Positions 7,656-54,255 of a stretch of 64,000 nt of DNA are shown here, piece after piece (positions within the stretch are counted from its first letter, which is position 1; every line of letters starts with the position of its first letter). The stretch is taken from positions 256,001 through 320,000 of the forward strand of contig CBDCYI010000009.1 in assembly GCA_965224085.1 (NCBI GenBank), given 5' to 3'. The translations under genes were made by a program, and so were the position numbers. The notes beneath the pieces were generated by a model. The model did no database searches and was not told the DNA's origin. It worked only from the letters and a program-made list of their open reading frames with translations. The DNA comes from Candidatus Marinacidobacterales bacterium. Lineage in GTDB: Bacteria > Acidobacteriota > Vicinamibacteria > Marinacidobacterales > SMYC01.

Positions 7656-7706
7656 CAAAACCTCAGATCCCGAATATCCGAATATCCATTTAGTTACGTG
7701 CTTTAG

Positions 7707-9341
7707 TTACTTGATTTTCTCCCCCCGGCCAAGAATGTCGGAGCGCTCTTGAAGCCCAGGATCGTTCACGCCGTACTCCGCCGCCTTCGCGGCGTGATCG
7801 ACGATCAAAGCGACGAGCGCATCGTCTTCCGGCGTGCACGGGCAACCGGCGCTGATTTGTCCGAACGCCGACCACGCGAGGCCCCAGTGCGCGAGACCAT
7901 AATTCGGAAAAGCCGCAAGCGCTTTTTGAAAATTATCGACCGCCTCGGGGAAACGCTGGCTGTCTTTGAGGGCGATGCCGTAATAGGCCCAACCGAGAGC
8001 GTTCGCATATTCCGGCGACATCACGGCTTTTTCGAGCGCTTCGAGCGCCGGCTGTAGCTGCTGGCTCTCGTAATGCGCGATGCCGAGCTCCGTCAAATAG
8101 TCTGCGTTTCCCGCATCGAGCGACTCGGCTTTCTGGAGCGCCGCGAGACCTTCAGCGGTTTGTTTCTGCGTGCGCAGGAGACGACCTTTCCGGTAGTGCG
8201 CTTCCGCGAGGCTGTCATCGAGCTCGGCCGCTTTCGAGAACTCCGTGATCGCGTCCGCACTGTTCTTCGCGCCCTCGTGAGAAAGGCCGAGATAGAGATG
8301 GCCCATCGCGTTGTCGGGATCCGTCGCGACTAGTTGCCGCATCACCTCCCCAAGCTCGCTGAACTTTCGCTGCTCGACATATATCTCCCCGAGCGCGACA
8401 TAGGCGACGATGAGATTCGGGTTCAGCTGAACAGCTTTCTCGTAATAGTTCGTCGCCATGCTCACATTTTCCTGGGCGTGGTAGACCTGCGCGAAGGCGA
8501 GGTTCGCGTCCGGGTCATCGGCGTTGACAGTGATGGCCATCGCGAGATCCGAATAGGCCTCATTGGTGTTTCCGAGAGCGTTGTTGGCCTTGCCGCGAAT
8601 GCCGTATGCGCGCGTCAACTGGTCGTTGAGCCCGAGTGCCTTGGAGGCCGAGTCAACGGCCCCGGGATAGTCCTCTTCGGCGAAGAGCACGTCGGCGAGC
8701 CCAGCATGAGCTTCCGCGGTGTTCGGGTCGAGCTCGAGGGCTTTTTGAAACGATGCCTTGGCCTCTTCTCGGTTTCCTTGAGCGAGCGCCGCTTCACCGA
8801 GGGTGTTATGCGCAAACGCATTGTTGGGCGCGAGCTCGAGGGCCTTCACCGCGATTAGCGCGGCTTCGTCGAGCTGGCCGGTCTTCGCCAGTCCCATCGC
8901 CAAACCAATGGCCACATCCGCGCTATCGGGGTTCATCTCGATCGCTTTGCGTCCGATTTCGACGGCCTTCACGTAATCTGCCGAGCGCGAATAGCCTATC
9001 GTCATGCCTTCGTAGCACTCGGCTTGCTCCTTGGCGTCGTCGAGATGCTCGGCGGCCAGCGCATAGGCGCTGGCTGCGTTCTGCCACTCCTCGAGTCCCC
9101 GATAGATCCGGGCGAGCTGGAGTCGAGAATCTCCATCGTCCGGAAAGTCCTGGAGAACTCGTAGAAACAGCCCGCCAGCCTTGGCGGAATCGTCCTCTTT
9201 CAACGCTTCCTCGGCTGCTTGGATGTAACGCCGAGCGTCCCGTCTAGAAAGCGGTTTGTCGTCCTGGGCCAGAACCGGCATCGCCAAACCCAAAATAAGA
9301 ATGACAAGGGTGGCCGCCTTGAAAGCCCCAAAAGTCCTCAT
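7707..9341 (-). CDS. Secreted tetratricopeptide-repeat protein
   Basis: Signal peptide ending VLA-Q; many TPR repeats (e.g. KALELDPNTAEAH); RBS AGGAGG. Confidence 0.9.
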   Translation of the reverse strand: MRTFGAFKAATLVILILGLAMPVLAQDDKPLSRRDARRYIQAAEEALKEDDSAKAGGLFLRVLQDFPDDGDSRLQLARIYRGLEEWQNAASAYALAAEHLDDAKEQAECYEGMTIGYSRSADYVKAVEIGRKAIEMNPDSADVAIGLAMGLAKTGQLDEAALIAVKALELAPNNAFAHNTLGEAALAQGNREEAKASFQKALELDPNTAEAHAGLADVLFAEEDYPGAVDSASKALGLNDQLTRAYGIRGKANNALGNTNEAYSDLAMAITVNADDPDANLAFAQVYHAQENVSMATNYYEKAVQLNPNLIVAYVALGEIYVEQRKFSELGEVMRQLVATDPDNAMGHLYLGLSHEGAKNSADAITEFSKAAELDDSLAEAHYRKGRLLRTQKQTAEGLAALQKAESLDAGNADYLTELGIAHYESQQLQPALEALEKAVMSPEYANALGWAYYGIALKDSQRFPEAVDNFQKALAAFPNYGLAHWGLAWSAFGQISAGCPCTPEDDALVALIVDHAAKAAEYGVNDPGLQERSDILGRGEKIK

Positions 9342-9492
9342 GACATCCCTCCTGTACAAACAAACTCAATAAAGCTCGGCGTAGCGAGCCGAATGCTCCG
9401 AGCATCCTATACCCAGCCGTGCGCCGCTTCAACCCTCGAATGAGGTTTGCATCGTGGGCGAACCCCGCTAACATGCGGGTGCCATCGAATTT

Positions 9493-37587: not shown

Positions 37588-38142
37588 GTGGAAATGTCCA
37601 GCCGCGATGAGCTCGAGAGCTTGGCGGAACAAGCTCGACAAGGAAGCTCGGAGGCCTGGGCCGAACTCTATGAAGCCAATGCACCCGCGATATTCCGACT
37701 TTGCCGCCGAGCTCTCAACAACCGGCAAGACGCTGAAGACGCCACCGCCGCCGTCTTTCTCAAGGCAAGGATGCGCCTCAAACAATTTGACACTTCGCGA
37801 CCCTTCGCACCTTGGATCTATCGCGTCGCGGCGAACCACTGCTGGGACGAGCTGCGCAAGCGAAGAACCCACGGCGAGTGGGACGAGGCCGAATCGGAGC
37901 TCCAAAAACTGCAAGACGATGCCCCAACGCCTCAGCAGGCGGTTTTGCTCAACGAGACCAAACGGAACGTCCGGAACGCCATCGCCGAGCTCGACGAACG
38001 AGCTCGGCTCGCCGTCATCCTGCGGTACTTCGCCGACATGAGCTACGAAGAGATCGGCGATGTGCTCGGCATTTCGAGCAATTTCACAGGGGTTTTGTTG
38101 CTGCGAGCGCGGCGTCAAATGAGGACGAGGCTCAAACAGTGA
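37588..38142 (+). CDS. ECF sigma factor (RpoE/SigW-like)
   Basis: DAEDATAAVFLKA, FAPWIYRVAANHC, MSYEEIGDVLGI, LLRAR. Confidence 0.92.
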   Translation: MEMSSRDELESLAEQARQGSSEAWAELYEANAPAIFRLCRRALNNRQDAEDATAAVFLKARMRLKQFDTSRPFAPWIYRVAANHCWDELRKRRTHGEWDEAESELQKLQDDAPTPQQAVLLNETKRNVRNAIAELDERARLAVILRYFADMSYEEIGDVLGISSNFTGVLLLRARRQMRTRLKQ

Positions 38143-39767
38143 GCGAGAGCACGAAGCACGTCGAGGAGCTGACCGTCATGAGGTTTTTGGACGGCGAGCT
38201 CTCGCAGGAGCGCGAACAGAAAACGCGCGAGCATCTAATCTGCTGCGCCAGCTGTCGCTCGGCCCACGAAGCCTTGAAGGCGGAGACCGAGCTCTTGCGC
38301 GCCGCCGTGCTCGAGCGTGAAGAAGCGTTACCCGGCCATCTGAGGCCGCGTCACGCCGACGTGTCGTGGGTACTGGTGGCGATGATCGCGTTCGGCACGC
38401 TCGCCGTCTCGAGCCTTTGGACGCGCTATGTCCAGCCCATCATCGAAAGCATGGAGAGCATCGGGCTCGACGGGACGAGCGTCGCGACATCCCTTGTCGT
38501 TCAAGGAGTTCTCTGGGAAGGTTGGTCCGATATGTTGACGAGTTTCGTCGAGGGCGTGTCCCTCTTACTAGTGGCGGTCGCCGCGGGCTACGTGCTGCAT
38601 TGGGGCTGGCGACGCTTTCTTTCGTCGGCGGTGACACTCTCGCTGCTGCTGGTCGCCCTCCCGGGCCTACTCGCAGCGCCTGCGAGTGTTTCGGCTGCGA
38701 TCATCAAGCACGACGTGGAAACCTACACGCTGCGAGAAGGAGAGGTTATCGATAACGATCTCATCGTCTTCGGCAAGAGAGTTGTGATCGAGGGGACCGT
38801 CGTTGGCGACCTCATTGTCGGCGCGGGCTCCGTCGAAGTTTTGGGCGAAGTGCAGGGGGACGTTCTCGGCTTTGCTGAGCGCATCGAGGTAAATGGCCGG
38901 GTTGGCGGCAATGTGCGCACCTGCGCTCGCACGCTCGTTGTCAACGGAGAGGTGGGGCGCAACATCACCGCGGGCGGCGAGGTCATTCGCTTAGGCCCGG
39001 GAGCGACACTCGGAGGAAGCTTCACTGCCGGGTCGAAAGAAGTGAGTTTACGCGCACCGGTCACGCGCGATCTCGTAATGGCGGCCGAAACGTCCGAGAT
39101 CCACGCGCGTATCGGCGGCTCGGCACTCGTCTTCGGCGAACGGCTCACGGTGGGCCCGACCGGGGCCATCGGCGGCGAGGCGAGATTTTTCGGCTCCCAA
39201 GAGCCGGAAGTCTCGGCTGATGCCGAGCTCACTTCGCCATTCGAGTTCGAAAGGGTCGACGACGACGACGAGTCGCTGACGTCCAGAGTTTGGGCCTTCT
39301 TCGGATACTGGGCCGCCGCGTTCATATTGGGTGCCGCGATCATGCTCGTGACCCCCGAAGCGACGGAAGGCGTCGTGACCCGCCACGTCCCCGACTATGG
39401 CAAGAGCTTCGTCGTCGGCGTCGTCGCGTCCGTCGTGCTCTTCGCGTTCACCTTCCTTGTGTCGGTCACCGTCGTCGGTCTTCCTCTCGGGTTGACGACG
39501 GCTTTCTTCCTGACTATCGGGCTGTACTTCGCGCAAGCGTATATCGGGGCCTATATCGGCCGCGAGATTCTCGGTACACCAACCAGTGCCGGGCAAGCGC
39601 TCGGCCGCGTGGCACTCGGACTGTTTTTGATTTACATTGCCAAGTCGATTCCCGTCGTCAATGTTGTCGTTACGATCATTGTAGCTATCTGGGGTTTTGG
39701 GGCGCTGTCGCTTTACCTCATCGACCAACTCAAACACGCAAAGAAGGCCGACCCGGCGGAGGCTTGA
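38139..39767 (+). CDS. Zinc-finger anti-sigma factor fused to bactofilin-like beta-helix repeats and a multi-TM C-terminus
   Basis: FLDGELS...HLICCASC (HxxxCxxC); repeated IEGTVVGDL/VLGEVQGDV/VNGRVGGNV; C-terminal VTVVGLPLG TM block; GTGA overlap with the sigma gene. Confidence 0.85.
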   Translation: MSESTKHVEELTVMRFLDGELSQEREQKTREHLICCASCRSAHEALKAETELLRAAVLEREEALPGHLRPRHADVSWVLVAMIAFGTLAVSSLWTRYVQPIIESMESIGLDGTSVATSLVVQGVLWEGWSDMLTSFVEGVSLLLVAVAAGYVLHWGWRRFLSSAVTLSLLLVALPGLLAAPASVSAAIIKHDVETYTLREGEVIDNDLIVFGKRVVIEGTVVGDLIVGAGSVEVLGEVQGDVLGFAERIEVNGRVGGNVRTCARTLVVNGEVGRNITAGGEVIRLGPGATLGGSFTAGSKEVSLRAPVTRDLVMAAETSEIHARIGGSALVFGERLTVGPTGAIGGEARFFGSQEPEVSADAELTSPFEFERVDDDDESLTSRVWAFFGYWAAAFILGAAIMLVTPEATEGVVTRHVPDYGKSFVVGVVASVVLFAFTFLVSVTVVGLPLGLTTAFFLTIGLYFAQAYIGAYIGREILGTPTSAGQALGRVALGLFLIYIAKSIPVVNVVVTIIVAIWGFGALSLYLIDQLKHAKKADPAEA

Positions 39768-40231
39768 TGATTCGCACGATACAGGAATTCTTCCAACAAC
39801 GCATCATCACCGAACAAACGCCGGTGGTGTCGCTCGAGCGCGCGCTACAACTAGCGACAACCGCGCTCCTGATCGAGATTTCGCGTGCGGACTTCGAAGT
39901 CGCGGACGAGGAGCGTATCGCCATCGAAGAAGCTCTCACGCGTAGCTTTGGGCTCACTGAGGATGAAACACGTGAGATCATCGCCCTTGCCGAGGAGGAA
40001 GTCGACGCCTCGGTCTCGCTCTACGAGTTCACCCGCCTCGTCGATGACAGCTTCACCTACGAGCAGAAGAAACACATCATCGGGCTCTTGTGGCAAATCG
40101 CGTATAGCGACGATCGGCTCGAGGAGCACGAAGAACATCTGATCCGCAAGATCGCCAAGCTACTGCATATCGACCACAGCGACTTCATCGCCGAGAAGCT
40201 CAGGGCAAAGGAAGCCCAGGCGAGGACGTAA
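39767..40231 (+). CDS. TerB-family protein
   Basis: ALLIEISRAD...EERIAI, SLYEFTRLV, LWQIAYSD.RL..HEEHLIRKIAKLL. Confidence 0.88.
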   Translation: MIRTIQEFFQQRIITEQTPVVSLERALQLATTALLIEISRADFEVADEERIAIEEALTRSFGLTEDETREIIALAEEEVDASVSLYEFTRLVDDSFTYEQKKHIIGLLWQIAYSDDRLEEHEEHLIRKIAKLLHIDHSDFIAEKLRAKEAQART

Positions 40232-41856: not shown

Positions 41857-42216
41857 GACGAAAAAGAAGAGGCGGGACCAAACCACGCCCAATTGACTAT
41901 CGATGAACGGTTTATCCGACAGGCGTCATTTCATACCGTAGATTTATGTAGGCGCTAGATCTTCCTTCCAATAATCAGAACCCGACTCAAACGGATGGCG
42001 CTTGATCTTCATTCGGCTTTTCGCGTAGTATTAGTGGCAGAGTTCGGGCTAATGCTAGTCCGGGCACCACAACCGGCACATCCACAACTGAAATCACGAT
42101 TCTCATATCGCGATAGCTATCTATCGAGGGGATGAGGCGACTTTGTCGCTTCGTCGCGCTGCCGCCACCCAACATCGCAAGCGGCAGTGGTTCGAAATGT
42201 CGAAAGGAGCGGAATC

Positions 42217-43032
42217 GTGCAGGAGTTTCTAGTAGCGGTCGTGGCCTTTCCCACGATCGTGTTCACGTTCGGTCTCGCGGTCGCCCTCCTCTACTGGCTC
42301 GTCGTGATCTTCGGCGCGCTCGACCTGGACTTTCTCGACAGCGCGCTCGGTCTCGACAGCATGGATGCCGCTCTCGACGGAGCGCTCGAATCGATCGACG
42401 GGATGGCAGACGGGGCCGTCGAAGGTGTGGTGGAATCGATCGATGGTGCGGTCGACGGCGCGGCGGAAGGCGCAGCGGACGCCGCTGATTCGGGAGATAC
42501 GAGCGACGGGGCCCGGCAGGGCGCCCTTTCCGGGCTCTTGAACATGATGGGTGTTCGCGGCGTTCCCATCACGGTCGTTGCGAGCTTCGTGCTGCTCTGG
42601 GCATGGATTATCAGCATGGTCGGCTCCAAATTGCTGGGCGCGGCGGCGGCGACGTTCCTCGTCGGCGGCTTTCTCACAGGATCATCGGTCCTCGGTTCGT
42701 TGGTCCTTGCGGCGGTCACCGCTCGGCCTTTCCGGAAAATCTTCGTGACACCCTCTGCGCCCAGTCGCGTTTCGCTCGTCGGAAAAATCTGTATCGTGAC
42801 TTCCGCGAAAGTCGACGGTGAGTTCGGCCGCGCCGAGATCGATGACGGCGCGACCGGTTTCGTCGCCGAAGTGCGATGCCCGCAGGACAACCAATTGACA
42901 CGAGGCGCCAACGCGCTCGTGTATCGCTACGACCCGGCCGACGGCGTCTTTTTCATTGGACCCGTCGACGATGCCTTGGCTACAGCATCGAATGTGGTCG
43001 ATTCACAGTCTGGCTCGATAGGGGGAGGATAA
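42217..43032 (+). CDS. YqiJ/NfeD-like membrane protein with C-terminal OB-fold
   Basis: FPTIVFT...YWLVVIFGALDLD, acidic loop, GVPITV, LVGKICIVTS.KVD.EFGRAEIDDG; RBS AAGGAG; abuts the flotillin gene. Confidence 0.8.
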   Translation: MQEFLVAVVAFPTIVFTFGLAVALLYWLVVIFGALDLDFLDSALGLDSMDAALDGALESIDGMADGAVEGVVESIDGAVDGAAEGAADAADSGDTSDGARQGALSGLLNMMGVRGVPITVVASFVLLWAWIISMVGSKLLGAAAATFLVGGFLTGSSVLGSLVLAAVTARPFRKIFVTPSAPSRVSLVGKICIVTSAKVDGEFGRAEIDDGATGFVAEVRCPQDNQLTRGANALVYRYDPADGVFFIGPVDDALATASNVVDSQSGSIGGG

Positions 43033-45081
43033 ATGTATTGGGTAATGGTCATTATCGCCGTCGGCGTGGGCGTGCTCATTCTGGGCATGGGCCTTTTGAT
43101 GCTCATCGCCAAGTTCTATCGCAAGGTAGAACAAGGCAAAGCGCTCGTCGTCAACAAGATGAAGCAAGAGCCTGAAGTCACGTTTACCGGCGCCACGGTG
43201 CTCCCCGTAATCCACAAGGCCGAGGTCATGGATATCTCGGTGAAGACACTCGAGATCGACCGGCGCGCGAAAGACGGACTGATCTGCCGTGACAACATTC
43301 GGGCCGACATCAAAGTCAACTTCTTCGTCCGCGTAAATAAACGCAAGGAAGATGTCATCAGAGTCGCGCAGTCCATCGGCTGCGCCCGCGCCTCATCTCC
43401 CGAAACGCTCGACGAGCTCTTCAGCGCCAAGTTCTCCGAAGCGCTGAAGACGGTCGGCAAGCAGCTCGACTTCGTCGACCTCTACACGAAGCGCGACGAA
43501 TTTCGCGACGCCATCATCCAGATCATCGGGCGCGACTTGAACGGCTACGCGCTCGAGGACGCGGCCATCGACTATCTCGAGCAGACCCCCCTCTCACATC
43601 TCGACCCGCAGAACATCCTCGACGCCCAAGGCATTCGCCGTATTACCGAGCTCACCGCGATCGAGCACATCCAAACGAACGAGTTCGAGAACAACGAGAA
43701 AAAAGCCATCACGAAACAGGACGTCGAGCGCGCAAAAGTCATCCTCGAGCTCGATCGCGAGCATGCGGACGCTGAGTCGAAGCAAAAGCGCGAGATCGAA
43801 TCGGTACGCGCGCGCGAATTGGCCGCGCTCCAGCAAGTCCAGGCGGAAGAGCGGCTCAAGTCCGAAACGGCGCGCATCAAGACGGACGAAGAAGTCCAGG
43901 TCGCCGAGGAGAACAAGAATCGCCAGGTCCAGGTTGCTGCCAAGAACCGCGAGCGCATTATTGGCGTCGAGACCGAGCGGGTCTTGAAAGACCGCCAGCT
44001 CGAACAGGTGGTCCGCGAACGTGAAGTCGAGCTCCAGCGCATCGACAAAGAGAAAGCGCTCGAAGTCGAGCGAAAAGAGATCCAGGACGTTATCCGCGAA
44101 CGCGTCGCTGTCGAGCGCACCGTTGTCGAGGAACAGGAGCGCATCAAAGAGCTCCAGGTCGTCGAGGAGGCCAAGCGCACCAAGCAGGCCACCATCATTA
44201 CGGCCGAGGCCGAAGCGGAAGAAGCCCTCGTCAAGGACATCAAAGCCGCCGAGGCCCAGGAGCAGGCTGCGAAGCACAAAGCCGTCGAGCGCATCACCCT
44301 CGCCGACGCCCAGCTCGAGGCCGCCGACCGCGACGCAAAAGCCAAGATCCGTCTCGCGGAAGGTACCCAGGCGGAAGCCGCAGCCGAAGGGCTCGCGGCC
44401 GCGAGGGTCAAAGAGGCCGACGCCGTCGCCTCCGAGAAGCACGGCCTCGCTGAAGTCCGGGTCCAGGAAGCGCAAGCGGGCGCTATCGAGCAAGTCGGCA
44501 CCGCGGAAGCGACCGTGGTTCGCGAGAAAGGCGTCGCCGAGGCGCACACCATCCAGCAGAAGTTCGGCGCTGAGGCGAAAGGCCTCGCGGAAAAAGCCGA
44601 GGCGATGAAAGCGCTCGACAAAGACAGCCGCCAGCACGAGGAGTACCGCATCCGCCTCGAGAACGAGCGCCTGCTCGGTCTCGAAGCGATCCAAGCGCGC
44701 GAAGCCGTCGCCGCGCACAAAGCCCAGGTCCTCTCCAAAGCGCTCGAGTCGGCGGATATCGACATCGTCGGCGGCGACGGTGTCTTTCTCGACCGCATGG
44801 TGAATTCCATCAGCATGGGCAAGGGCGTCGACGAGCTCGTCGATCAAAGCGACGTCATCTCCGGGCTCGCCAAAGACTATTTCAATGGCGACAAGAACAT
44901 CATCAAAGAGATCCGTCAGATCATGAAGGATTCCGGCATCGACGGAGGCATGCTCAAGGACATCACCATCGGGGCGCTTCTGACGAAGATCGCTACCGAT
45001 ATGGGAGGAGACGATCACGAAAAACTGAAGAAGCTTCAACGGCAAGCCAAAGCCTTGGGCATCGACGACGTTCGGCTATAA
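43033..45081 (+). CDS. Flotillin/SPFH protein (YqiK-like) with long coiled coil
   Basis: N-terminal TM, GLICRDNIRADIKVNFFVRV, NILDAQGIRRI, AEA-rich repeats, IDIVGGD. Confidence 0.92.
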   Translation: MYWVMVIIAVGVGVLILGMGLLMLIAKFYRKVEQGKALVVNKMKQEPEVTFTGATVLPVIHKAEVMDISVKTLEIDRRAKDGLICRDNIRADIKVNFFVRVNKRKEDVIRVAQSIGCARASSPETLDELFSAKFSEALKTVGKQLDFVDLYTKRDEFRDAIIQIIGRDLNGYALEDAAIDYLEQTPLSHLDPQNILDAQGIRRITELTAIEHIQTNEFENNEKKAITKQDVERAKVILELDREHADAESKQKREIESVRARELAALQQVQAEERLKSETARIKTDEEVQVAEENKNRQVQVAAKNRERIIGVETERVLKDRQLEQVVREREVELQRIDKEKALEVERKEIQDVIRERVAVERTVVEEQERIKELQVVEEAKRTKQATIITAEAEAEEALVKDIKAAEAQEQAAKHKAVERITLADAQLEAADRDAKAKIRLAEGTQAEAAAEGLAAARVKEADAVASEKHGLAEVRVQEAQAGAIEQVGTAEATVVREKGVAEAHTIQQKFGAEAKGLAEKAEAMKALDKDSRQHEEYRIRLENERLLGLEAIQAREAVAAHKAQVLSKALESADIDIVGGDGVFLDRMVNSISMGKGVDELVDQSDVISGLAKDYFNGDKNIIKEIRQIMKDSGIDGGMLKDITIGALLTKIATDMGGDDHEKLKKLQRQAKALGIDDVRL

Positions 45082-45099
45082 CGGAAGGCTCACGTAATC

Positions 45100-48000
45100 A
45101 TGAGCACGGACGTACAACAACAACCCGAGATCGAGCGCGGCACTTACGAGATCATCCGGGACCGCTTGCTCGGCCACGGCAAGACACTCGCCGAGAAAGC
45201 CGATGGACTCAACAGGAAACGCCTCGAGATCTTCGGAGGCACCGAGCTCGCGGTCCTGGGCAACGAGCGCATCCGGACCGAGAACAACTGCATCCCGCGC
45301 GACATCAAGGAGGTGGGTAACCACCTCCTGTTCGGCTATAACGTTTTCATCGGCCTCAAGCGCGAGACTCGCGTTGAGGACGTTTTCAGCCTTCACAGCT
45401 ACGAGAAGACGGAGGACGGCTTCGTTTTTCGCAAAGTCGAAAAAAACTCTCCCGACTACTTTCTCTCGGACGTGAAATTTCTAGAGGAGTTCCACGAGCT
45501 CTATCACTATTACAAGAACACCAAGCTCCTCCAGCTGAGACGGGTCAGCGAGAAGCTTCTCGCGGTATTCCAAATTGGCGAGAAGATCGAGGACGTGCGC
45601 GTGTTCCGCTGGGCCATCTCCACCGACGGCGCGGTTACCTATATCGACAACCGCGGCGAGCGCGACCACGTTTTCCCTCGGACCCATGACTTCGAATGGA
45701 CGCTCACAGCGCGTGAAGAGCACGTGCAGGGCCGTCACCCGCACGTCAACATTCTCGACGAAGTTTTCGTCGAGACCGTCGGCGGCGATCTCACGATCAA
45801 GGTCGAGAACAACACCGAAGACGGCCAGGGTATCTATCGCGAGCCGGTGCTCGACGCCGACCAATCTTTGGACGACGCGGAAGTCCACTACGCAGAAGTG
45901 GGCACGCTCATTCTTCTGAAGATGCTCCCCTACCGCGAAACGGATTACCGATATCTCGTCTTCAACACGCGCACCAATCACGTCGATCGCATCGACGCCA
46001 TCGGCCAATCCTGCGTACAGCTTCCCGAGGACCACGGCGTCATCTTTCCGGGCGGCTACTACCTGAAGAGCGGCCACACAAAGTCCTTCGAGCGCGATTT
46101 CCGCGGGATGGAGTTCCTGAGACGTCTGCGCTCCCCGAACGGCGAAGACGTCCTTTACGCGTTTCACGAGCGTGAATCTGGGCGCACGATCCTACTTCCG
46201 TACAACATGATCCGGAAGGAGGTCGACAACCCGCTCAATTGCCACGGCTTCAGCCTCTATCCCGACGGCACGCTCGTCGTGTTCCGCGCTGGCGACGACG
46301 AGCCCAAACGCGTCCATGGGATGCAAGTCTGGCGCACGCCCTTCTTGAGCGAAGAGGCGGTGCAGTCGCGGCCGCCCACCGGCTCGTTCCTCGAGAAAGT
46401 GGGCAATGCCGAGCTCGTGCGCGGCGTCTCCGACTGCTTGAGCATTCGCCGCATGGTCGACGAGCAGGAGCCGACGCGGCAGAAATACGAGGACCTCGTC
46501 GCGGCGGCGGCACGCGTCATCGACAGCTATTACTGGCTCGACAACCCCGAGATTGGAGACCTGCGCGAGCCGCTCCGGAACGTTCACGAGTCCGCCGAGA
46601 GCATCATCGACGAGTTCGAAAAAGTCGAAGCGCTAAGGGCGCAAGCGAGAAGGACTCTCGACGAGGCCGGCGAGAAGGTCCAGGAGATCTTCCGAACCAT
46701 TTATCCCGATTCCTGGACCTCGATCGACCAATATGTCGCCTGTCTCGCGAGCTTACGCTCGGCGCGCGGGCACCTCATTACGCTCCGCGAAACACGCTAT
46801 GTCGATCTCGCCCGAATCGACACGGTCGAAGCGGAGATTGTCGAGCGCTTCGATAATGTCAGCGAGCGCGCCGTCGAGTTTCTTCTGCAAGACGAAGCAC
46901 TACTTCCCTATCAAGAACGCGCGGGCGCGCTCGAGGACGGTGTTCCCGGCCTCTCGAAAGTTACCGAGGCGAACGCCCATCAAGACGCCCTCCAAGAGTT
47001 CGGCGACAGTCTCGATCTCTTGACCGATGTGGTCAGCTCGCTCGAGATCGACGACGCCACGGTCCGCACGCAGATTCTCGGGAACATCTCGGAGATCTTG
47101 GGAAGCCTCAACCGCGTCCGTGCGCTCATCACCAACCGGCGCAAAGAGCTTCTCGGCAAAGAAGGCATCGCTGAGTTCGGCGTGCAATTCCAGCTTTTGA
47201 GCCAAAGCGTAACGAGCGCTCTATCTCTCTCCGACACGCCCGAGAAATGTGACGAACAGCTCTCGAAGCTCATGCTCCAGCTCGAAGATCTGGAAACCCG
47301 TTTCTCCGAGTACGAAGAGTTCACGGACGAGCTCACGACCAAGCGCGAGGAAATCTACGAGGCGTTCAGCTCGAAGAAGCAGTCCCTTGTCGACCGGCGC
47401 CAGCGCCGCGCGCAAAACTTGATGCAGGCCGCCGAGCGTATTCTAGGAAGTGTGACGCGGCGCGCGGAGACGTTCGAGACCGCCGACGACCTGAACGCCT
47501 ATTTCGCTGCTGACGCGATGGTCGCCAAGCTCCGGAGCACGTCAAACAATTTGCGAGAGCTCGGCGACTCTGTCCATGCCGACGAGATCGACGGCCGACT
47601 CAAAGCCGCCAAAGAAGACGCCGCCCGCGGACTTCGCGACCGCCAGGAGATCTACGAGGACGGCGCCAACGTCATCAAGCTCGGCAGGCACCGCTTCAGC
47701 GTCAACACTCAGCCTCTCGAGCTCACCATGGTGCCTCGCGACGACGCCATGGCCTTTCATCTCACCGGCACCGGCTTCTACGAGCAGGTCGACGATGAGA
47801 CCTTCGGAAAAACGCAGGATTTCTGGTCGCAAGAGCTCGTTTCCGAAACGCGTTCAGTCTATCGGGGCGAATATCTGGCCTATTGCGTGCTCGAAGACGC
47901 AGAGCTCGGAGATTCCGAGTTGTCGCTCAAGAAGCTCCTCCAAGCCACCCGCGGCGAAGGGGCGCTTCTGGGCATCATACGCGACTATGCGGCTCTGAGA

Positions 48001-50472
48001 TATGACGAGGGGTATGAGCGCGGCCTCCACGACGCCGACGCGACGCTGATCTTGCAAAAGATCCTGGGCATGCACGAGACCGCGGATCTGCTTCGCTTCA
48101 CCCCGAACGCGCGCGCACTGGCTACCGTTTTCTGGGCGCTCTACGACGACCGGAAAAAGCGCGCGGCCTGGGAAAGCCAAGCTCGCAGCCTCGTCCGCCT
48201 CCGCACCCAATTCGAGCACACGGAGGCGATGACGGAGCTCGGTGGCGAGCTCAACGAAGCGATCGCGACCCATCTCGCCGAGATCGGGATCGATGTGCCG
48301 ACGCAGGCGTCCCGTCTAGCCGGCGCCTACCTGCTCGAAGAGATCGCGCGCGAGCCGCAGAAATTCGTCCTGAGCGCGGATGCAAACGAGCTCAAGCGCG
48401 CTTTCGAAAAGCACTTGCGTGAGTCCGGCGGCGACCGCGAGCTCGAACAGGACTTGCGCGCGCTCAGCGACACGCCCGTGCGCGCTTACGAGCTCACGGA
48501 GGCGTGGATGGCCGCCTTTCTCTCGAGCTCGGAAAACGGCGATCGCTTGGCTCGCTCTTCCCTCGAGGCCGTCGTCGCGCTTCTTTTCGAAGACAAAGTG
48601 AGCCGAGACACCTCGAGCGCGCAGTCCAAAGTCACGGTCGAGGGGCTCCTTGGCCAGCACCCCCGCATGCCGCAAGGCCGTATGGAGCTCCATCTAGACG
48701 AATTCCTCTCGCGGCTCGGCCATTTTCGACATCGACAAGTCAGAGGCTTCAGAGAGTTCCAAAAAGCCCGCCACGACGTGCTCGAGCACGAGCGTGAGAA
48801 TCTACGTCTCGACGAGTACAAGCCCAAGGTCATGTCGTCTTTCGTGCGCAACCGGCTCATCAACGACGTGTATCTACCGCTCATCGGCGACAACCTCGCG
48901 AAACAGATGGGGGCTCTCGGCGACGCCAAGCGCACCGACCTCATGGGGATGCTTCTCCTCATCTCACCTCCGGGCTACGGCAAGACGACTTTGATGGAGT
49001 ACCTCGCCAACCGGCTCGGCCTCGTCTTCATGAAGATTAACGGCCCCGCCCTCGGCCACTCGGTCACATCGCTAGATCCAGGCGAAGCACCGAACGCCAC
49101 CGCGCGCCAGGAGGTCAACAAGCTCAACCTCGCTTTCGAGATGGGCAACAACGTCCTTCTCTACATCGACGACATCCAGCACACCCATCCCGAATTTCTC
49201 CAGAAATTCATCTCGCTCTGCGACGCACAGCGAAAAGTGGAAGGTGTTTGGAAAGGTCGGACGCGCACTTACGATCTGCGCGGCAAGAAGTTCGTCGTGT
49301 GCATGGCGGGAAACCCTTACACGGAATCCGGCGAAAAATTCCAAATCCCAGACATGCTCGCGAACCGCGCCGATACCTACAATCTAGGCGACATCCTCGA
49401 AGGCAAAGACGACTTCTTCGCGCTTTCCTACATCGAGAACGCGCTCACGTCGAACGCCGTCCTCGCGCCCCTCACGACGCGCGAGCAAAGCGATATCGAG
49501 TTGCTCGTGCGCATGGCGAATGGCGAGGCGATTCAAGCGGATCAGTTGAAGCACGGCTACTCCGCCGTCGAGATCGGCGAGATCCAGTCCGTTTTGAAGA
49601 AGCTTCTCAAAGTCCAGCAGGTGCTCCTCGCGATCAACCAGCAATATATTCGCTCGGCGTCGCAAGAAGACGCCTATCGCACCGAGCCGCCTTTCAAGCT
49701 CCAGGGGAGCTACCGCAACATGAACAAGCTCGCTGAGAAGATCGTGGCCGCGATGAACGACGACGAGCTCGAAAGCCTCATCGACGACCACTATCTCGGC
49801 GAATCGCAGACTTTGACGACGGGCGCCGAAGAGAACCTTCTCAAGCTTGCCGAGATGCGCAGCCGGATGAGCGAGAGCCAGAAGGCACGCTGGGAGGAGA
49901 TCAAAAGCGGTTTCGTTCGAGTGCAACGCATGGGGGGCGGCGACGACGACCCCGCGACGAGGCTCACGGGACAGCTCAGCCTGGTCTCCGAGCATCTCGA
50001 AGACATCGGTCAGAGCATCGAGCGCGCCGCCTCGAGTGCTGCTTCTCGCCCGCAAGCGATCTCGGCGGATCCCGACCTCAGCGCGTTCACCGCGCGGGAC
50101 GTCGAGGTCAAGCTCGACCTCGCTCCCTATATCGACAAGCTCCACGAGCTTCTCGAGGCCTTCCAGAACGGGCAAACACAACTCGCCGCCGCACCGCAGA
50201 TCAAGGGCGAGGCCCAGGCGCCGCCAGCGGATTACGAGCTCATCTCACGCGAGTCCTACCTCATCGAAGGCACCCTCATCCCGTTGATGCGCTTCATGGC
50301 GCATCGCTTCCGGGGCTATCGCGGGGTGGACGACCCGAAAATCAAAGCGCTCATACAGAGACTCGAATATGTCGACGATCTCCAGGAGCTCGTCAACGCG
50401 CTCGAGAAAATCAACGTCTCCGCCCTCTCGAACATAACCGACGAAGAGGAGACGGACGAGGCCTCGACATGA
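45100..50472 (+). CDS. 1790-aa coiled-coil AAA ATPase (family often labelled 'DNA repair ATPase', DUF3686-like)
   Basis: GTYEIIRDRL, RTENNCIPRD, SPNGEDVLY, Walker A PPGYGKT, Walker B LYIDDIQH, MAGNPYTESG. Confidence 0.85.
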   Translation: MSTDVQQQPEIERGTYEIIRDRLLGHGKTLAEKADGLNRKRLEIFGGTELAVLGNERIRTENNCIPRDIKEVGNHLLFGYNVFIGLKRETRVEDVFSLHSYEKTEDGFVFRKVEKNSPDYFLSDVKFLEEFHELYHYYKNTKLLQLRRVSEKLLAVFQIGEKIEDVRVFRWAISTDGAVTYIDNRGERDHVFPRTHDFEWTLTAREEHVQGRHPHVNILDEVFVETVGGDLTIKVENNTEDGQGIYREPVLDADQSLDDAEVHYAEVGTLILLKMLPYRETDYRYLVFNTRTNHVDRIDAIGQSCVQLPEDHGVIFPGGYYLKSGHTKSFERDFRGMEFLRRLRSPNGEDVLYAFHERESGRTILLPYNMIRKEVDNPLNCHGFSLYPDGTLVVFRAGDDEPKRVHGMQVWRTPFLSEEAVQSRPPTGSFLEKVGNAELVRGVSDCLSIRRMVDEQEPTRQKYEDLVAAAARVIDSYYWLDNPEIGDLREPLRNVHESAESIIDEFEKVEALRAQARRTLDEAGEKVQEIFRTIYPDSWTSIDQYVACLASLRSARGHLITLRETRYVDLARIDTVEAEIVERFDNVSERAVEFLLQDEALLPYQERAGALEDGVPGLSKVTEANAHQDALQEFGDSLDLLTDVVSSLEIDDATVRTQILGNISEILGSLNRVRALITNRRKELLGKEGIAEFGVQFQLLSQSVTSALSLSDTPEKCDEQLSKLMLQLEDLETRFSEYEEFTDELTTKREEIYEAFSSKKQSLVDRRQRRAQNLMQAAERILGSVTRRAETFETADDLNAYFAADAMVAKLRSTSNNLRELGDSVHADEIDGRLKAAKEDAARGLRDRQEIYEDGANVIKLGRHRFSVNTQPLELTMVPRDDAMAFHLTGTGFYEQVDDETFGKTQDFWSQELVSETRSVYRGEYLAYCVLEDAELGDSELSLKKLLQATRGEGALLGIIRDYAALRYDEGYERGLHDADATLILQKILGMHETADLLRFTPNARALATVFWALYDDRKKRAAWESQARSLVRLRTQFEHTEAMTELGGELNEAIATHLAEIGIDVPTQASRLAGAYLLEEIAREPQKFVLSADANELKRAFEKHLRESGGDRELEQDLRALSDTPVRAYELTEAWMAAFLSSSENGDRLARSSLEAVVALLFEDKVSRDTSSAQSKVTVEGLLGQHPRMPQGRMELHLDEFLSRLGHFRHRQVRGFREFQKARHDVLEHERENLRLDEYKPKVMSSFVRNRLINDVYLPLIGDNLAKQMGALGDAKRTDLMGMLLLISPPGYGKTTLMEYLANRLGLVFMKINGPALGHSVTSLDPGEAPNATARQEVNKLNLAFEMGNNVLLYIDDIQHTHPEFLQKFISLCDAQRKVEGVWKGRTRTYDLRGKKFVVCMAGNPYTESGEKFQIPDMLANRADTYNLGDILEGKDDFFALSYIENALTSNAVLAPLTTREQSDIELLVRMANGEAIQADQLKHGYSAVEIGEIQSVLKKLLKVQQVLLAINQQYIRSASQEDAYRTEPPFKLQGSYRNMNKLAEKIVAAMNDDELESLIDDHYLGESQTLTTGAEENLLKLAEMRSRMSESQKARWEEIKSGFVRVQRMGGGDDDPATRLTGQLSLVSEHLEDIGQSIERAASSAASRPQAISADPDLSAFTARDVEVKLDLAPYIDKLHELLEAFQNGQTQLAAAPQIKGEAQAPPADYELISRESYLIEGTLIPLMRFMAHRFRGYRGVDDPKIKALIQRLEYVDDLQELVNALEKINVSALSNITDEEETDEAST

Positions 50473-50493: not shown

Positions 50494-50502
50494 TGTTACG
50501 AT
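50494..50502 (+). promoter_or_regulatory. Possible extended -10 promoter for pspA-AAA-ykgJ
   Basis: TGnTACGAT in the 61-bp gap, upstream of RBS AAGGGAG. Confidence 0.4.
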
Positions 50503-50533
50503 TCCCAAAACCGGTTCTCACCGAAGGGAGTTC

Positions 50534-51292
50534 GTGATGGGGTTATTCGAGCGGATCCGAGCGGTCTGGTACGCCATAATCAACAAATCCGTCACTGAGA
50601 TGGAGGACGCGCACGTGATCGCACTCGCGGAGCACAAGCTCCAGCAGGCCACCGAGCGACTGAAAGAGGCGCGCCAAGGCTTGATCAGCTATCAAGCACT
50701 CGTTTTGAAAGTCGAAGGGCAAGTCGGAAGCGAAAAGTCGCGCATCGCGAGCGTCACCGGGCAGATCAAGAACCACTTGAAGGCCAATCAGGAAGAGATG
50801 GCCGGCCAGCTCGCTCTCGAGCTCGCTCGGGTCAAAGGCGAGCTCGAAAGCAACACCGAGCAGCTCGCACAACATCGCGAGAGCTACGAGAACAACCTTC
50901 TGAAGATGAAAGCGGCGCTCAAGGACATCGAGACGGCCAAGCAGGACCTCGACAAGAAGAAAGCCGCGCTTCAGATGGAGAAGGCTTTGGCCGAAGTCTC
51001 CGAGACCGCCGGCGCGCTCAACACCCAGTTCGATGTTTCTTCCGACATCGGCTCGATCCTGAGCCGCGTCGACGACCAGATCAATAAAGCCAAAGCGCGC
51101 TCGAAGGTCGCCTCCGATCTGAGCGATCAAGGCATCGATCAGCTCAAAGCGAAGCAATCGGCAGACAAGGCCGAAGCTCAGGAGCTTCTCGCGCAGTTCA
51201 AGATCGAGCAGGGGCTCGCCGAGCCGTCTTCAGAAGCAAGTGAGAAAACTGTAGGACCGCAGAGAGAAGCCACGCCAGAGTCCGGTGAATAG
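50534..51292 (+). CDS. PspA/IM30 (ESCRT-III-like) family protein
   Basis: Amphipathic MGLFERIRAVW N-terminus, all-helical coiled coil of ~250 aa, LALELAR, KARSKVASDL, C-terminal AQELLAQFK helix. Confidence 0.8.
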   Translation: MMGLFERIRAVWYAIINKSVTEMEDAHVIALAEHKLQQATERLKEARQGLISYQALVLKVEGQVGSEKSRIASVTGQIKNHLKANQEEMAGQLALELARVKGELESNTEQLAQHRESYENNLLKMKAALKDIETAKQDLDKKKAALQMEKALAEVSETAGALNTQFDVSSDIGSILSRVDDQINKAKARSKVASDLSDQGIDQLKAKQSADKAEAQELLAQFKIEQGLAEPSSEASEKTVGPQREATPESGE

Positions 51293-53006
51293 CCCTTTGG
51301 GAAGCGGCGCGCCCACTTGGGCGCGGGAGCTTGCCTCGAGCTATGTCAGTGGGGCTGCAAGCGTCTTCCTTCTCTATGGAAACGTCCACGACCTCGTTCC
51401 GGTCACGGACTCGGACGAGTTCATCTCGCTCGACGACTATCTCGCCACGCAGCTCTTCGGCCAACGGGACATCGTTCTCGCCTACGATCGCGGTAGCGGC
51501 ATCCGCTTTCTCGCTCCCGGGGATGCCGACCGTCGGGCGTCCATGCAAGAGGACTTTTACAAGACGCTCAAAGCCGTGGACTCGGTAAGCGGCACAAGCT
51601 TCGCGAGCTCGAGGCCTAAAGATCCCAAAGTCGTGTTCGAGCTCCTCGACCGCTACATCCTCCACAAGCTCGTCGAAACGCCTGCAGACGGCAATCGCAA
51701 GAGCCTCGCGATCGTGATCTGCTATGTCGAGACCATCACGCCGGCCGTCGATGGCTCGTGGCTCACGGGCGAGCTCGGCGCCAACCTCATCAAAGTGCTC
51801 AATTGGGCCAACGACCCTGGGATTCGAAGCGCTGATGTGACGCTTTGTCTCGTCACGGAGAACCTCGGCGACGTAAACCGCCGCCTCGTCGAGAACCCAT
51901 TCATCTCTAAAGTAGACGTCGAGCTCCCGGACGAGACGACGCGTGAGCGCTACGCGAGGCATTTGTTGAAAGACGCAGCAATGGCGAAGACGGTGGCCCG
52001 TGAAGGCAACGGGCTGACGCTCGTCGGTCTCGCACAGGCGGTCAGTGGCTCCGTCGAGCTCGCCAATTTGCAAGCGGCCAAAAAGGAGCTCATCGAGAAA
52101 CAGTGCTTCGGCCTCGTCGAGTTCGTTGCTCCGAGCTACGACCTCGACATGGTTGTCGCGCCCGAGGCAGTCAAAGACCGCCTCGAGCAAGACGTGTCGC
52201 TATTCAAGAAGGGACGGCTCGAAGCGCTCCCGATGGGCTATCTCCTCTGCGGGGTCATCGGCACCGGCAAGACATTTACGGCAACATGCTTTGCAGGAAG
52301 CCTCGGCATCCCAACGATCGTCTTCAAGAACCTCCGCAGCAAGTGGGTCGGAAGCTCCGAAGGCAATCTCCAAAAAGTGCTCTCGGTGATCAAAGCCCTC
52401 GGCCCCGTCGTCGTCGTCGTCGATGAAGCCGATGCCGCGCTGGGAAGCCGCGGGTCGAGCGGGGACAGCGGCACGTCGAGCCGCATGTTCGCGATGATCT
52501 CGTCACTCATGAGCGACACCGGTTACCGGGGGCGCATCCTGTGGATGCTCCTCACTTGCCGTCCTGACATGTTGCCCGTCGATTTGAAGCGGCAAGGTCG
52601 CTGCGAGGTCCACATCCCGCTCTTCCCGCCCGAGACTGAGAAGGCCCGCCACCAAATGTTTCTCGCGATGGCGCGCACAAACGGCGTCGCGATCGCTCCC
52701 AGCGACGTTCCCACCCTGCCGGAAGAGCTCTCGGGCGCGGACATCGAAAGTCTGCTCGTGCAATGCGTCCGCCGCGCCGCGATCGCGGGCGCTGCTTCGC
52801 TCTCCGCCGCGCATATCCGTGACACGCTTGCCCACTTTCGATCACCGGATTATGGTCTCGAGAAGGAGCTGCAGCAGCTCGTCGCCATCCGCGAGAGCAC
52901 CGACCCCAACTTCATCCCAAAGCGACTGCGAACGCGTTACGGAGCGCCGGACAAGGCGATAGCCCTCGAGCACCGCATTCAGGAGATCGCAGCACTTCTC
53001 CAATGA
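51285..53006 (+). CDS. Classical-clade AAA ATPase (degenerate N-terminal AAA-like domain plus one active domain)
   Basis: FLLYGNVHD N-domain; GVIGTGKT, SKWVGSSEGNL, VVDEAD, LKRQGR; overlaps the pspA stop. Confidence 0.88.
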   Translation: MNSPLGSGAPTWARELASSYVSGAASVFLLYGNVHDLVPVTDSDEFISLDDYLATQLFGQRDIVLAYDRGSGIRFLAPGDADRRASMQEDFYKTLKAVDSVSGTSFASSRPKDPKVVFELLDRYILHKLVETPADGNRKSLAIVICYVETITPAVDGSWLTGELGANLIKVLNWANDPGIRSADVTLCLVTENLGDVNRRLVENPFISKVDVELPDETTRERYARHLLKDAAMAKTVAREGNGLTLVGLAQAVSGSVELANLQAAKKELIEKQCFGLVEFVAPSYDLDMVVAPEAVKDRLEQDVSLFKKGRLEALPMGYLLCGVIGTGKTFTATCFAGSLGIPTIVFKNLRSKWVGSSEGNLQKVLSVIKALGPVVVVVDEADAALGSRGSSGDSGTSSRMFAMISSLMSDTGYRGRILWMLLTCRPDMLPVDLKRQGRCEVHIPLFPPETEKARHQMFLAMARTNGVAIAPSDVPTLPEELSGADIESLLVQCVRRAAIAGAASLSAAHIRDTLAHFRSPDYGLEKELQQLVAIRESTDPNFIPKRLRTRYGAPDKAIALEHRIQEIAALLQ

Positions 53007-53512
53007 AAGACGGCCTCGTTCGCAGACAAGTCAAGCGCATCGGCCTCGGCGTCTTCCACGCGCGTCTGTTTCTTCACCGCCTTCAGGCCGACACGCGTTA
53101 CGAGCTCGGCGGCGAGTGCATCCGCTGCGGCAAATGTTGCTTGGAGCCAGGAATTCAAGTCGGCCGCATCGCTTGGTACCTCCCCGGCTGCCGGCGGGTC
53201 TTTCTCTGGTGGCACCGAGTTGTCAACGGCTTCACGCTCAAGGAGGCCCGGCGGGAAGACCGCGTGTTCATTTTTGAGTGCAGCCATTTCGACTGGGCGT
53301 CGCGGAGCTGCGACAGCTACCACTCCCGGCCCGGAATGTGCCGCGACTACCCGCGCCTGTTCCTCGAACAGGCCAACCCCGAGTTTTTCGACGAGTGCGG
53401 TTTCAAAGCGCTCGCTCGAGGCCGGGACAGCCTCATCCAAATTCTCGAGAAAGAATCTCTTACGCCGCAGCAGCTGGCCAAGCTGAAAAAAGGCCTTTAT
53501 CTCGAAGATTGA
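53003..53512 (+). CDS. YkgJ-family cysteine-cluster (Fe-S/Zn) protein
   Basis: CIRCGKCC...CSHF...C..Y..RPGMCRDYP; ATGA overlap with the AAA gene. Confidence 0.85.
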   Translation: MKDGLVRRQVKRIGLGVFHARLFLHRLQADTRYELGGECIRCGKCCLEPGIQVGRIAWYLPGCRRVFLWWHRVVNGFTLKEARREDRVFIFECSHFDWASRSCDSYHSRPGMCRDYPRLFLEQANPEFFDECGFKALARGRDSLIQILEKESLTPQQLAKLKKGLYLED

Positions 53513-53622: not shown

Positions 53623-54255
53623 ATGCGTAGACTGAAGATCCGGAGTTATCTCGCCACCGGTCTACTAGTCTGGATTCCGCTCGCCGTGACCCTCTTCGTC
53701 CTCCGGGTGCTGATAAATTTGATGGATCAGTCCCTCCTGCTGATCCCGCCGTCGTTGCGTCCTGAGAATCTATTGGGGTTCAGCATCCCGGGCCTGGGCG
53801 TCATTCTCACGTTCACGCTCGTCACCGTGACCGGTTTTTTGGCCGCGAACTTTCTCGGCAAACGGCTATTGGCGACCTCGGAAGGGCTTCTCGCACGTAT
53901 CCCGCTTGTGAGCTGGGTCTATTCCGGCGTAAAGAAGGTGGCGGAAACGCTCTTGTCGCCGACGAGCGAGTCGTTTCGCAAAGTGCTCCTGATGGAGTAC
54001 CCTCGCAAAGGCATCTGGAGCGTCTGCTTTCAAACGTCGAGCGAGCTTGGCGAGATACAGATTCGTACGGGGAAGGAAGTGCTCTGCGTGTTCGTCCCCA
54101 CGACCCCGAACCCCACCTCTGGTTTCGTCATTTTCGTTCCCCGCGATGAGGTCATCGAGCTCGATATGACGGTCGACCAAGCATTGAGGATGATCATCTC
54201 GCTCGGCGTCGTGGTTCCCGAGTGGCGCCGCCGCGAGCTCATGCCGGTAGGTTGA
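53623..54255 (+). CDS. DUF502 membrane protein
   Basis: TGLLVWIPLAVT, RIPLV..VYSGVK, VFVPTTPNPTSGF. Confidence 0.92.
   Translation: MRRLKIRSYLATGLLVWIPLAVTLFVLRVLINLMDQSLLLIPPSLRPENLLGFSIPGLGVILTFTLVTVTGFLAANFLGKRLLATSEGLLARIPLVSWVYSGVKKVAETLLSPTSESFRKVLLMEYPRKGIWSVCFQTSSELGEIQIRTGKEVLCVFVPTTPNPTSGFVIFVPRDEVIELDMTVDQALRMIISLGVVVPEWRRRELMPVG

Follow-up and report, generated by a model that had tools for sequence, protein, structure and literature searches.

How the polymers formed by the bacterial proteins PspA and Vipp1 come apart is an open question. We analyzed a 64,000-nucleotide (nt) stretch of the genome of a Candidatus Marinacidobacterales bacterium (contig CBDCYI010000009.1, positions 256,001 to 320,000; hereafter the window, with positions counted from its first letter), in which a pspA gene, for a polymer-forming membrane-repair protein, overlaps a gene for an ATPase with tandem AAA domains. 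Such a pspA-ATPase dyad is an obvious candidate for the missing activity. An earlier reading of the bare sequence (the original prediction) had taken the two genes for a bacterial pair analogous to ESCRT-III and Vps4, with an ATPase of the Vps4 type. This analogy survives in part: the two genes are linked in most related loci and a conserved tail of PspA is predicted to dock on the ATPase, whereas the ATPase is, judged from its family matches, not a member of the Vps4 family, and the idea itself had already been published.

Neither the pairing nor its likening to ESCRT-III/Vps4 is new to the literature. In section 18 and Text S2.2, Ravi et al. (mSystems 2024; PMC11237479) describe PspA encoded beside an "inactive classical AAA + classical AAA" protein and liken the two to Snf7/Vps4 (i.e., ESCRT-III/Vps4), as an in silico prediction from genome context with AEY64320.1, CKH37208.1, and OGG56892.1 as examples. 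A long operon including PBPB-OmpA, ABC ATPase/permease, and transmembrane (TM)-Snf7 genes is treated there as optional, and "assembly" is named besides remodeling for chaperone-like partners linked to PspA. A whole-word search of the main text of that paper returned no "MIM," "MIT" for archaeal Vps4 only, and "tail" in one reference title only. Our additions are the minimal two-gene form, the junction with a flotillin/DUF3686 module, and a residue-level recognition hypothesis. Since the idea was already published, their value lies in testability and not in discovery; the minimal form and the predicted tail contact provide a simple two-protein system with named residues to mutate.

Like the dyad in these parts of Ravi et al., the window has two AAA domains in one polypeptide, of which the N-terminal copy is inactive, and an adjoining pspA gene. 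One gene order among the relatives fetched here (layout ii below) is that of OGG56892.1 in their Table S3, and the assignment to the published dyad rests on the operon layout shared with this row. The window differs from it in three respects. First, it holds the bare dyad: the ABC binding protein and the TM coiled-coil gene of the long operon were not found in the window genome with the proteins of one relative (L002) as queries, which at 95% genome completeness and with this choice of queries means "not found with these queries" and does not prove absence. Second, pspA precedes the AAA gene, the reverse of the order in the Clostridium example of the paper. Third, the dyad is flanked by other genes, namely an NfeD-flotillin-DUF3686 module upstream and a coupled CxxCxxCC gene downstream.

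A second set of related loci is archaeal. Makarova et al. (mBio 2024; PMC10936438) report a PspA-like gene upstream of a gene for a Vps4-like ATPase that lacks MIT and has a VAT-type N domain, and the ESCRT neighborhoods that they describe include SPFH proteins and an ABC substrate-binding protein (SBP). The window resembles these loci in that a PspA-like ESCRT-III relative is encoded directly 5' of an MIT-less classical AAA ATPase; it differs from them in being bacterial and in its ATPase, since the archaeal one is described as having just one AAA cassette and an N domain of the double-psi barrel type. The same paper gives systems of vps4 plus ESCRT-III as limited to the archaea and the eukaryotes, and a 2025 review (PMC7619361) says of a Vps4-like ATPase that it "appears absent in bacteria."

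Genomic linkage of pspA and the ATPase gene

The pspA gene (positions 50537 to 51292, plus strand) encodes a protein of 251 amino acids (aa) from the PspA/IM30 family of the ESCRT-III superfamily. Its frame opens with a GTG at 50534 and ends with the stop at 51292; the ATG at 50537 is the likely start because a ribosome-binding site (GAAGGGAG; 50523 to 50530, plus strand) stands before it. The protein matches PspA_IM30 (PF04012) with 44.1 bits against a cutoff of 33.9, its residues 3 to 226 covering profile positions 1 to 218 of 220. A second, canonical PspA (133 bits) is encoded elsewhere on the same contig, and by these scores the ATPase-linked PspA is a divergent paralog.

The ATPase gene (51285 to 53006, plus strand; 573 aa) encodes a degenerate D1-like domain followed by an active classical AAA (D2-like) domain. 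It begins with a GTG and, as the original prediction had noted, overlaps the pspA stop, the two frames sharing 8 nt (GTGAATAG). The GTG start is supported by the homologs of the ATPase, which likewise begin MN(S/N)PL, and the overlap is considered real because these starts agree and three genomes of the same genus keep an identical 8-nt overlap. An extended -10 element had also been proposed upstream of pspA (TGTTACGAT, i.e., TG-T-TACGAT; 50494 to 50502, plus strand). It matches TATAAT at four of six positions and is a weak candidate, with no -35 element and nothing reported upstream of pspA by a promoter scan. The promoter/terminator scan, whose counts equaled those of shuffled sequences, found nothing resembling a plus-strand terminator in the spacer between DUF3686 and pspA, at the pspA-AAA junction, or at the AAA-CxxCxxCC junction.

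A one-genome-per-species scan yielded 561 relatives, from which the best-scoring 80 loci were kept; these are kin and not independent samples. They derive from Planctomycetota, Acidobacteriota, Gemmatimonadota, Bacteroidota (Balneolaceae), Myxococcota, Elusimicrobia, and other lineages. A profile of linked PspAs located pspA upstream of the ATPase gene, in the same orientation, in 66 of the 80 loci, a count that is descriptive because the loci are a top-scoring sample and related to one another. The distance to the ATPase gene is at most 600 nt in 34 loci and 3.0 to 5.3 kb, within one co-directional cluster, in 32. Among the 14 loci without a PspA match, 11 have less than 3.5 kb of upstream DNA. 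The situation considered in the original prediction, in which homologs of the ATPase would mostly not be adjacent to PspA, is therefore not what these loci show, and their gene context marks the pair as a conserved functional unit. Within the class of the window, the ATPase was present in 50 of the 151 genomes searched.

Most lineages have further genes in their clusters, for a binding protein fused to OmpA, for an ABC permease and an ABC ATPase, and for a TM coiled-coil protein of 280 to 300 aa. Two layouts were seen in other phyla: (i) PspA, AAA, a 97-aa protein, an SBP/OmpA fusion, ABC permease, ABC ATPase, and a TM coiled-coil protein of about 290 aa; and (ii) PspA, SBP/OmpA, permease, ABC ATPase, TM protein, and AAA. 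PspA and the ATPase appear as the constant core of the cluster.

Two lineage-specific patterns were observed besides. In Planctomycetota loci (L003, L005, L007, L010, L012, L024, and others), a conserved gene of about 97 aa lies directly 3' of the ATPase gene; it forms cluster c8, which occurs in 16 loci and has no Pfam match. A different cluster is shared by the Balneolaceae-type loci (L040, L045, L048 to L051, L053, L055, L057, L058, L061 to L065, and L080), in the order pyrimidine-nucleoside phosphorylase, PspA, a second, short PspA-like protein (~154 aa), a TM protein of 294 aa, enoyl-CoA hydratase, a CNNM/CorC transporter, and the ATPase.

Domain architecture and family of the ATPase

Pfam places a single AAA domain in the ATPase (PF00004; E value, 1.5e-20; residues 320 to 445), and the motifs named in the original prediction are all present (plus strand throughout). 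Walker A and Walker B are intact, as GVIGTGKT (residues 323 to 330; positions 52251 to 52274; G323, G326, T327, G328, and K329 invariant) and VVVVDEAD (residues 376 to 383; 52410 to 52433; D380 and E381 invariant), respectively. The predicted arginine finger LKRQGR lies within DLKRQGRCE (residues 433 to 441; 52581 to 52607), the second region of homology, which contributes two arginines, R436 and R439, and is invariant from D433 to R439. Pore loop 1, predicted as SKWVGSSE, was located in RSKWVGSSE (residues 351 to 359; 52335 to 52361), in which R351, G356, and E359 are invariant and the aromatic residue is W or Y in relatives. In the alignment of 80 homologs, K329, D380, E381, R436, and R439 have no exception.

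The degenerate AAA-like domain that had been proposed to precede the active one was also borne out. In an AlphaFold2 model of the ATPase (mean predicted local distance difference test [pLDDT] score, 87.2), residues 9 to 538 align with residues 209 to 763 of p97, which comprise D1 and D2 (Z score, 21.9; 445 aligned residues; root mean square deviation [rmsd], 8.6). Because of this alignment, the N-terminal half is taken as a genuine AAA-like domain (N-domain; residues ~1 to 275; 51285 to 52109, plus strand), and as a degenerate one because LLYGNVHD (residues 29 to 36) replaces the P-loop at its position. As modeled, the ATPase has a type II architecture, i.e., a D1-D2 tandem like that of Cdc48/p97, in which the N domain is missing and D1 is dead. 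With Cdc48, p97, and VAT it shares this tandem, and the D2 pore loop of VAT likewise has SKWVG. It differs from them in starting at the D1 equivalent, with only about 8 residues ahead of it (model residue 9 corresponds to p97 residue 209) and no double-psi barrel N domain, as well as in a D1 without a P-loop and in the replacement of the sensor-1 Asn.

Several family models place the ATPase outside the Vps4 family. Pfam gave no MIT (PF04212) or Vps4_C (PF09336) match at an E value of ≤0.01, in accordance with the caveat of the original prediction that no MIT domain was visible. The CdvC equivalog NF041006 scored 29.4 bits against a cutoff of 650, below CDC48 (58.8 bits), PAN (49.6), IteA (48), and FtsH (38.8), all of which are themselves far under their own cutoffs; for the CDC48 model (TIGR01243), the cutoff is 802.65 and the D2 part alone matches. 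The best 60 PDB sequences obtained with a profile of the 80 homologs were VAT, Afg2, Cdc48/p97, NVL, NSF, Rix7, and YME1, with VAT at the top (E value, 9.5e-35) and Vps4 not among them. In the printed profile alignment, the D2 pore loop of VAT reads SKWVGESE, so pore loop 1 is not diagnostic of Vps4, a second caveat of the original prediction that proved justified. On these scores, the tandem arrangement, and the VAT pore loop, the Vps4-type assignment is not supported. A Vps4_C search in the five Planctomycetota and Bacteroidota genomes behind L020, L017, L028, L045, and L027 likewise returned no match.

The fold does not discriminate among these families. The active domain of the model superposes on yeast Vps4 (3eih) with a Z score of 21.8 (rmsd, 2.9; 262 aligned residues), and it superposes equally well on FIGL1, spastin, and p97 D2, all tied with Vps4 at a Z score of about 21; as modeled, the fold therefore cannot decide between Vps4 and these three. 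The fold matches, i.e., p97, Cdc48, Rix7, Vps4, and spastin, are substrate-threading AAA proteins (Z score, ~21).

The likeness to Vps4 and CdvC lies in the K-W-hydrophobic-G pore loop, in an ESCRT-III-superfamily gene immediately 5' of a classical-clade AAA gene, and in a polymer subunit with a conserved C-terminal motif that is predicted to dock on a noncatalytic N-terminal part of the ATPase. In ESCRT-III/Vps4, the MIT-interacting motif (MIM) docks on MIT. In contrast to Vps4, which has a single cassette (type I), the window ATPase has two AAA-fold domains, and its receptor would be a dead AAA domain instead of a three-helix bundle; by comparison of the model with p97 D1, residues 9 to 270 are AAA-like and do not form such a bundle.

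The N-domain is widespread. Searched among 1.84 billion representatives, it gave 967 representative clusters at an E value of ≤0.001, 332 at 1e-10, and 33 at 1e-30, which suggests a similarly wide occurrence of the dyad. Three relatives of the ATPase (P0124, P0134, and P0149) are longer, at 818 to 856 aa. P0124 has an extra copy of the degenerate N-domain ahead of the usual tandem, and P0134 and P0149, which belong to its length class, have two matched stretches each. These proteins were considered as PspA-ATPase fusions (Rosetta stone proteins) and rejected, P0124 being without PspA similarity (hhalign probability, 0.4). Another protein, P0234 (721 aa), combines the degenerate N-domain (E value, 2.7e-19) with an FtsH-type AAA domain and Peptidase_M41 and has nothing that resembles the membrane part usual in FtsH. 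A soluble protease built on this architecture is thus a possible interpretation.

The PspA tail, a possible remodeling mechanism, and alternatives

Beyond the ESCRT-III core, the 56 linked PspAs examined share a tail consensus, F221-x-x-E-x-G226-L-x-x-P, followed by a variable spacer and K237-x-(V/L/I)-G240 (window PspA numbering). K237 is invariant, F221, G226, and G240 are conserved in at least 90% of the tails, and a P follows G240 in 34 of the 56. In the window, the motif reads F221-K-I-E-Q-G226-L-A-E-P ... K237-T-V-G240-P (positions 51197 to 51259, plus strand). The canonical paralog lacks the F..E.GL..P part and ends in KKKMGI. The original prediction had proposed the acidic tail of PspA as a handle for the ATPase. 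The tail is mildly acidic, and what is conserved in it is the sequence motif and not the acidity; its role as a handle is favored by a predicted complex. As a separate observation, the tail of the Balneolaceae-type PspA has KT(I/V)G and then a Lys/Ser-rich end.

The complex was predicted from the full ATPase monomer (80-row alignment) and PspA residues 190 to 251 (56-row alignment). It reached an ipSAE score of 0.61 (0.60 to 0.62 in three runs), with 0.00 for the best of three controls. Of 157 solved complexes, 116 attain a mark of this height, as do 2 of 215 mismatched pairs; this calibration applies only approximately because our own alignments and a single ATPase monomer were used. The runs share at least 91% of their contacts, and the pLDDT of the partner is at least 65. 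On the ATPase side, the predicted interface comprises residues 4 to 5, 17 to 23, 55 to 61, 93 to 102, 126 to 140, and 179 to 184, all in the degenerate N-domain, which is thus the predicted receptor of the tail; on the PspA side, it comprises residues 212 to 224 and 228 to 243. The lowest-error contacts join PspA K237 to P241 with Y20, Q56 to Q60, and D184 of the ATPase, and within the Q56 to Q60 stretch F58 is invariant and G59 is conserved in at least 90%. We know of no solved complex of a PspA tail with a degenerate AAA domain, so that a high score through memorization of a known structure is unlikely. The model supports binding of the tail to the N-domain, and the predicted docking of a conserved PspA tail makes a Vps4-like division of labor plausible.

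These results suggest a two-part membrane-remodeling unit encoded by pspA and the overlapping ATPase gene. PspA, with its ESCRT-III fold and N-terminal amphipathic helix, would polymerize on the inner face of the membrane, as is established for the family. The dead D1-like domain, which should not bind ATP in the usual way, would serve as the receptor for the PspA tail (K237-x-V/L-G240-P and the preceding stretch). By analogy with Vps4 and Cdc48, the active D2-like ring, with its Walker motifs, two arginine fingers, and aromatic pore loop, would thread the C terminus of PspA and extract subunits, and the polymer would thereby be disassembled, recycled, or reshaped. In the lineage of the window, the genes of the unit stand straight after an NfeD-flotillin-DUF3686 scaffold module. 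We give about an even chance to this reading, i.e., a PspA-polymer remodeler that works like ESCRT-III/Vps4 with Cdc48-type parts while standing outside the Vps4 family.

Several points weigh against this reading, in addition to the descriptive linkage count and the approximate calibration given above. The sensor-1 Asn is replaced by Cys425 in the window ATPase (sensor-1 stretch, residues 422 to 428; positions 52548 to 52568) and by Cys, Ser, or Ala in relatives, with the preceding Thr424 invariant; hydrolysis might be slowed or altered by this replacement. As a set, the residues of the predicted interface show no higher conservation than the remainder of the N-domain, the buried core of which is included in the comparison (mean, 0.572 versus 0.646; one-sided Mann-Whitney test, P = 0.97). 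The loosest form of the tail motif (K-x-hydrophobic-G/A) fits all 56 tails and the C terminus of the canonical PspA as well, so that the tail cannot yet be called specific. Three loci (L017, L041, and L052) have no PspA match despite at least 8 kb of upstream DNA. Literature searches found no experimental study of the pspA-tandem-AAA dyad. Finally, the true client could be among the products of the binding-protein, ABC, and TM coiled-coil genes.

This last point leads to the most serious alternative, which we nevertheless consider unlikely: PspA would be an adaptor or regulator and not a client, its tail tethering or gating the ATPase at the stressed membrane while the motor acts on other proteins, such as membrane proteins or components of the ABC/TM-coiled-coil or flotillin modules. 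The clusters of most relatives do hold SBP-OmpA, ABC permease/ATPase, and TM coiled-coil genes, and in four genera the pair has the flotillin/DUF3686 module next to it. The predicted contact, which lies on the inactive domain and outside the pore, would suit an adaptor as well as a client. The review mentioned above (PMC7619361) describes a precedent in E. coli, where the AAA+ protein PspF is bound and inhibited by PspA. On the other side, pspA and the ATPase gene are the sole genes found to be common to the lineage of the window and the 66 linked loci, which leaves no constant alternative client, and the docking motif is at the extreme C terminus of a polymer-forming protein. Clients of Vps4 carry their docking motif in the same place.

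The ATPase might instead act as an assembly or holdase chaperone, keeping newly made PspA monomeric or loading it onto the membrane. Translational coupling through the 8-nt overlap would bring both proteins together at synthesis, the altered sensor 1 could suit a slow, holding ATPase, and "assembly" is a term that Ravi et al. (PMC11237479) apply to PspA-linked chaperone-like partners in the part cited above. The aromatic pore loop, the Walker B motif, and the two arginine fingers, all invariant, are by contrast marks of a processive threading motor, and they make this alternative rather improbable. In mechanism it overlaps with the remodeling of PspA polymers, and sequence can hardly tell the two apart.

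An identity of the ATPase as the anti-phage ATPase IetA/IteA, with PspA as a bystander or membrane effector, was rejected on model scores and gene context and seems highly improbable: it is suggested by PADLOC IetA (E value, 1.9e-14; 51.9 bits) and NCBIfam IteA_antiphage (NF042959; 48 bits), but the former match covers the generic AAA part only, the latter is far from its cutoff of 510 and below the CDC48 score, no defense-type neighbors were seen in the loci, and the locus is syntenic across genera beside housekeeping genes in a window of even GC content.

The flotillin module and other flanking genes

The interval between the IsoDH gene and pspA is occupied exactly by a module of three plus-strand genes (42187 to 50472). 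The first (42187 to 43032) encodes a 281-aa membrane protein without a Pfam or NCBIfam match; it is labeled YqiJ/NfeD-like by position because it precedes a flotillin gene, as in Table S3 of Ravi et al., and it has the same place in five relatives. The second (43033 to 45081; 682 aa), also conserved in five relatives, encodes a flotillin-family (SPFH) protein. It had no Pfam, NCBIfam, or PDB sequence match, and a protein-atlas feature search placed it with flotillin/Band_7 clusters at 0.99, which serves as a lead only. The third (45100 to 50472; 1,790 aa) encodes a giant AAA+ protein with a propeller, a coiled coil, and one AAA module (residues 1285 to 1410). It matches DUF3686 (PF12458; E value, 8.2e-212), which carries the Pfam label "DNA repair ATPase," and DUF7902, and its gene is present in a single copy in the window genome.

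The order TerB, IsoDH (opposite strand), NfeD-like, flotillin, DUF3686, PspA, and AAA was found in five relatives from three genera (G077, G104, G083, G134, and G071), and of the 10 relatives tested, 6 have the DUF3686 gene upstream of the AAA gene at a distance of about 6.2 to 6.5 kb; in one of a fourth genus (G140), the matching DUF3686-to-ATPase spacing alone was seen. In two others (G116 and L001), the order is IsoDH, PspA, AAA, and CxxCxxCC with no module between, and in all of the 80 wider loci both DUF3686 and a flotillin of the window type are missing within 10 kb. Because of this junction and the 80 loci without it, the module is taken as a lineage-specific insertion or loss between IsoDH and pspA. 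The pspA-ATPase unit may be cotranscribed with it.

A comparable module has been described beside a different PspA. Table S3 of Ravi et al. (PMC11237479) lists operons of the form CesT/Tir-PspA, YqiJ/YuaF, Band-7/flotillin, and "beta-propeller + coiled-coil + AAA," and the bac cluster of Pseudomonas aeruginosa (PA3732 to PA3729) is grouped here with these operons. The TM protein, flotillin, and DUF3686 giant AAA+ protein of the window form the same module, again adjoining PspA. Unlike in these table rows, the PspA of the window is linked to a tandem AAA protein and stands after the module instead of before it, and no CesT/Tir gene is present. As the same module is known beside the CesT/Tir-linked PspA, the window joins two published PspA contexts.

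A broader proposal can be formulated, which is tentative and in our view somewhat doubtful. The dyad would be a bacterial ESCRT-III disassembly machine unlike Vps4, i.e., a Cdc48-derived tandem AAA protein whose dead D1 ring, as an analog of MIT, reads the K-x-(V/L)-G-P tail of a dedicated PspA paralog, the subunit then being fed into the pore of D2. The acidobacterial family of the window would have combined this machine with a scaffold of flotillin and NfeD and with the giant AAA+ protein of the DUF3686 type as one membrane-microdomain repair system, where other lineages use the cell wall-tethered ABC module.

Downstream, a gene for a CxxCxxCC (YkgJ-type Zn/Fe-S) protein (53003 to 53512, plus strand; 169 aa; PF03692; E value, 1.1e-5) overlaps the stop of the AAA gene by 4 nt (ATGA). 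It is found 3' of the ATPase gene in six relatives as well (L001, G077, G104, G083, G134, and G116) and, from its position, is a family-specific third member of the pspA-ATPase unit. It is followed by a gene for a DUF502 membrane protein (53623 to 54255, plus strand; PF04367; E value, 1.6e-33), which is downstream in five of the six relatives fetched; both genes follow the dyad in four of the five syntenic regions described above.

On the other side of the module, TerB and IsoDH are syntenic near the cluster in all relatives fetched. In the window, a zf-HC2 anti-sigma-like open reading frame (ORF; 37812 to 39767) and the TerB-domain ORF (39290 to 40231) overlap in different frames, and one of the two starts is therefore probably misplaced. 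In G134 (locus L104, positions 4944 to 10324), the DUF3686 gene is split into two overlapping ORFs (864 and 1,091 aa), which is a frameshift or an assembly error.

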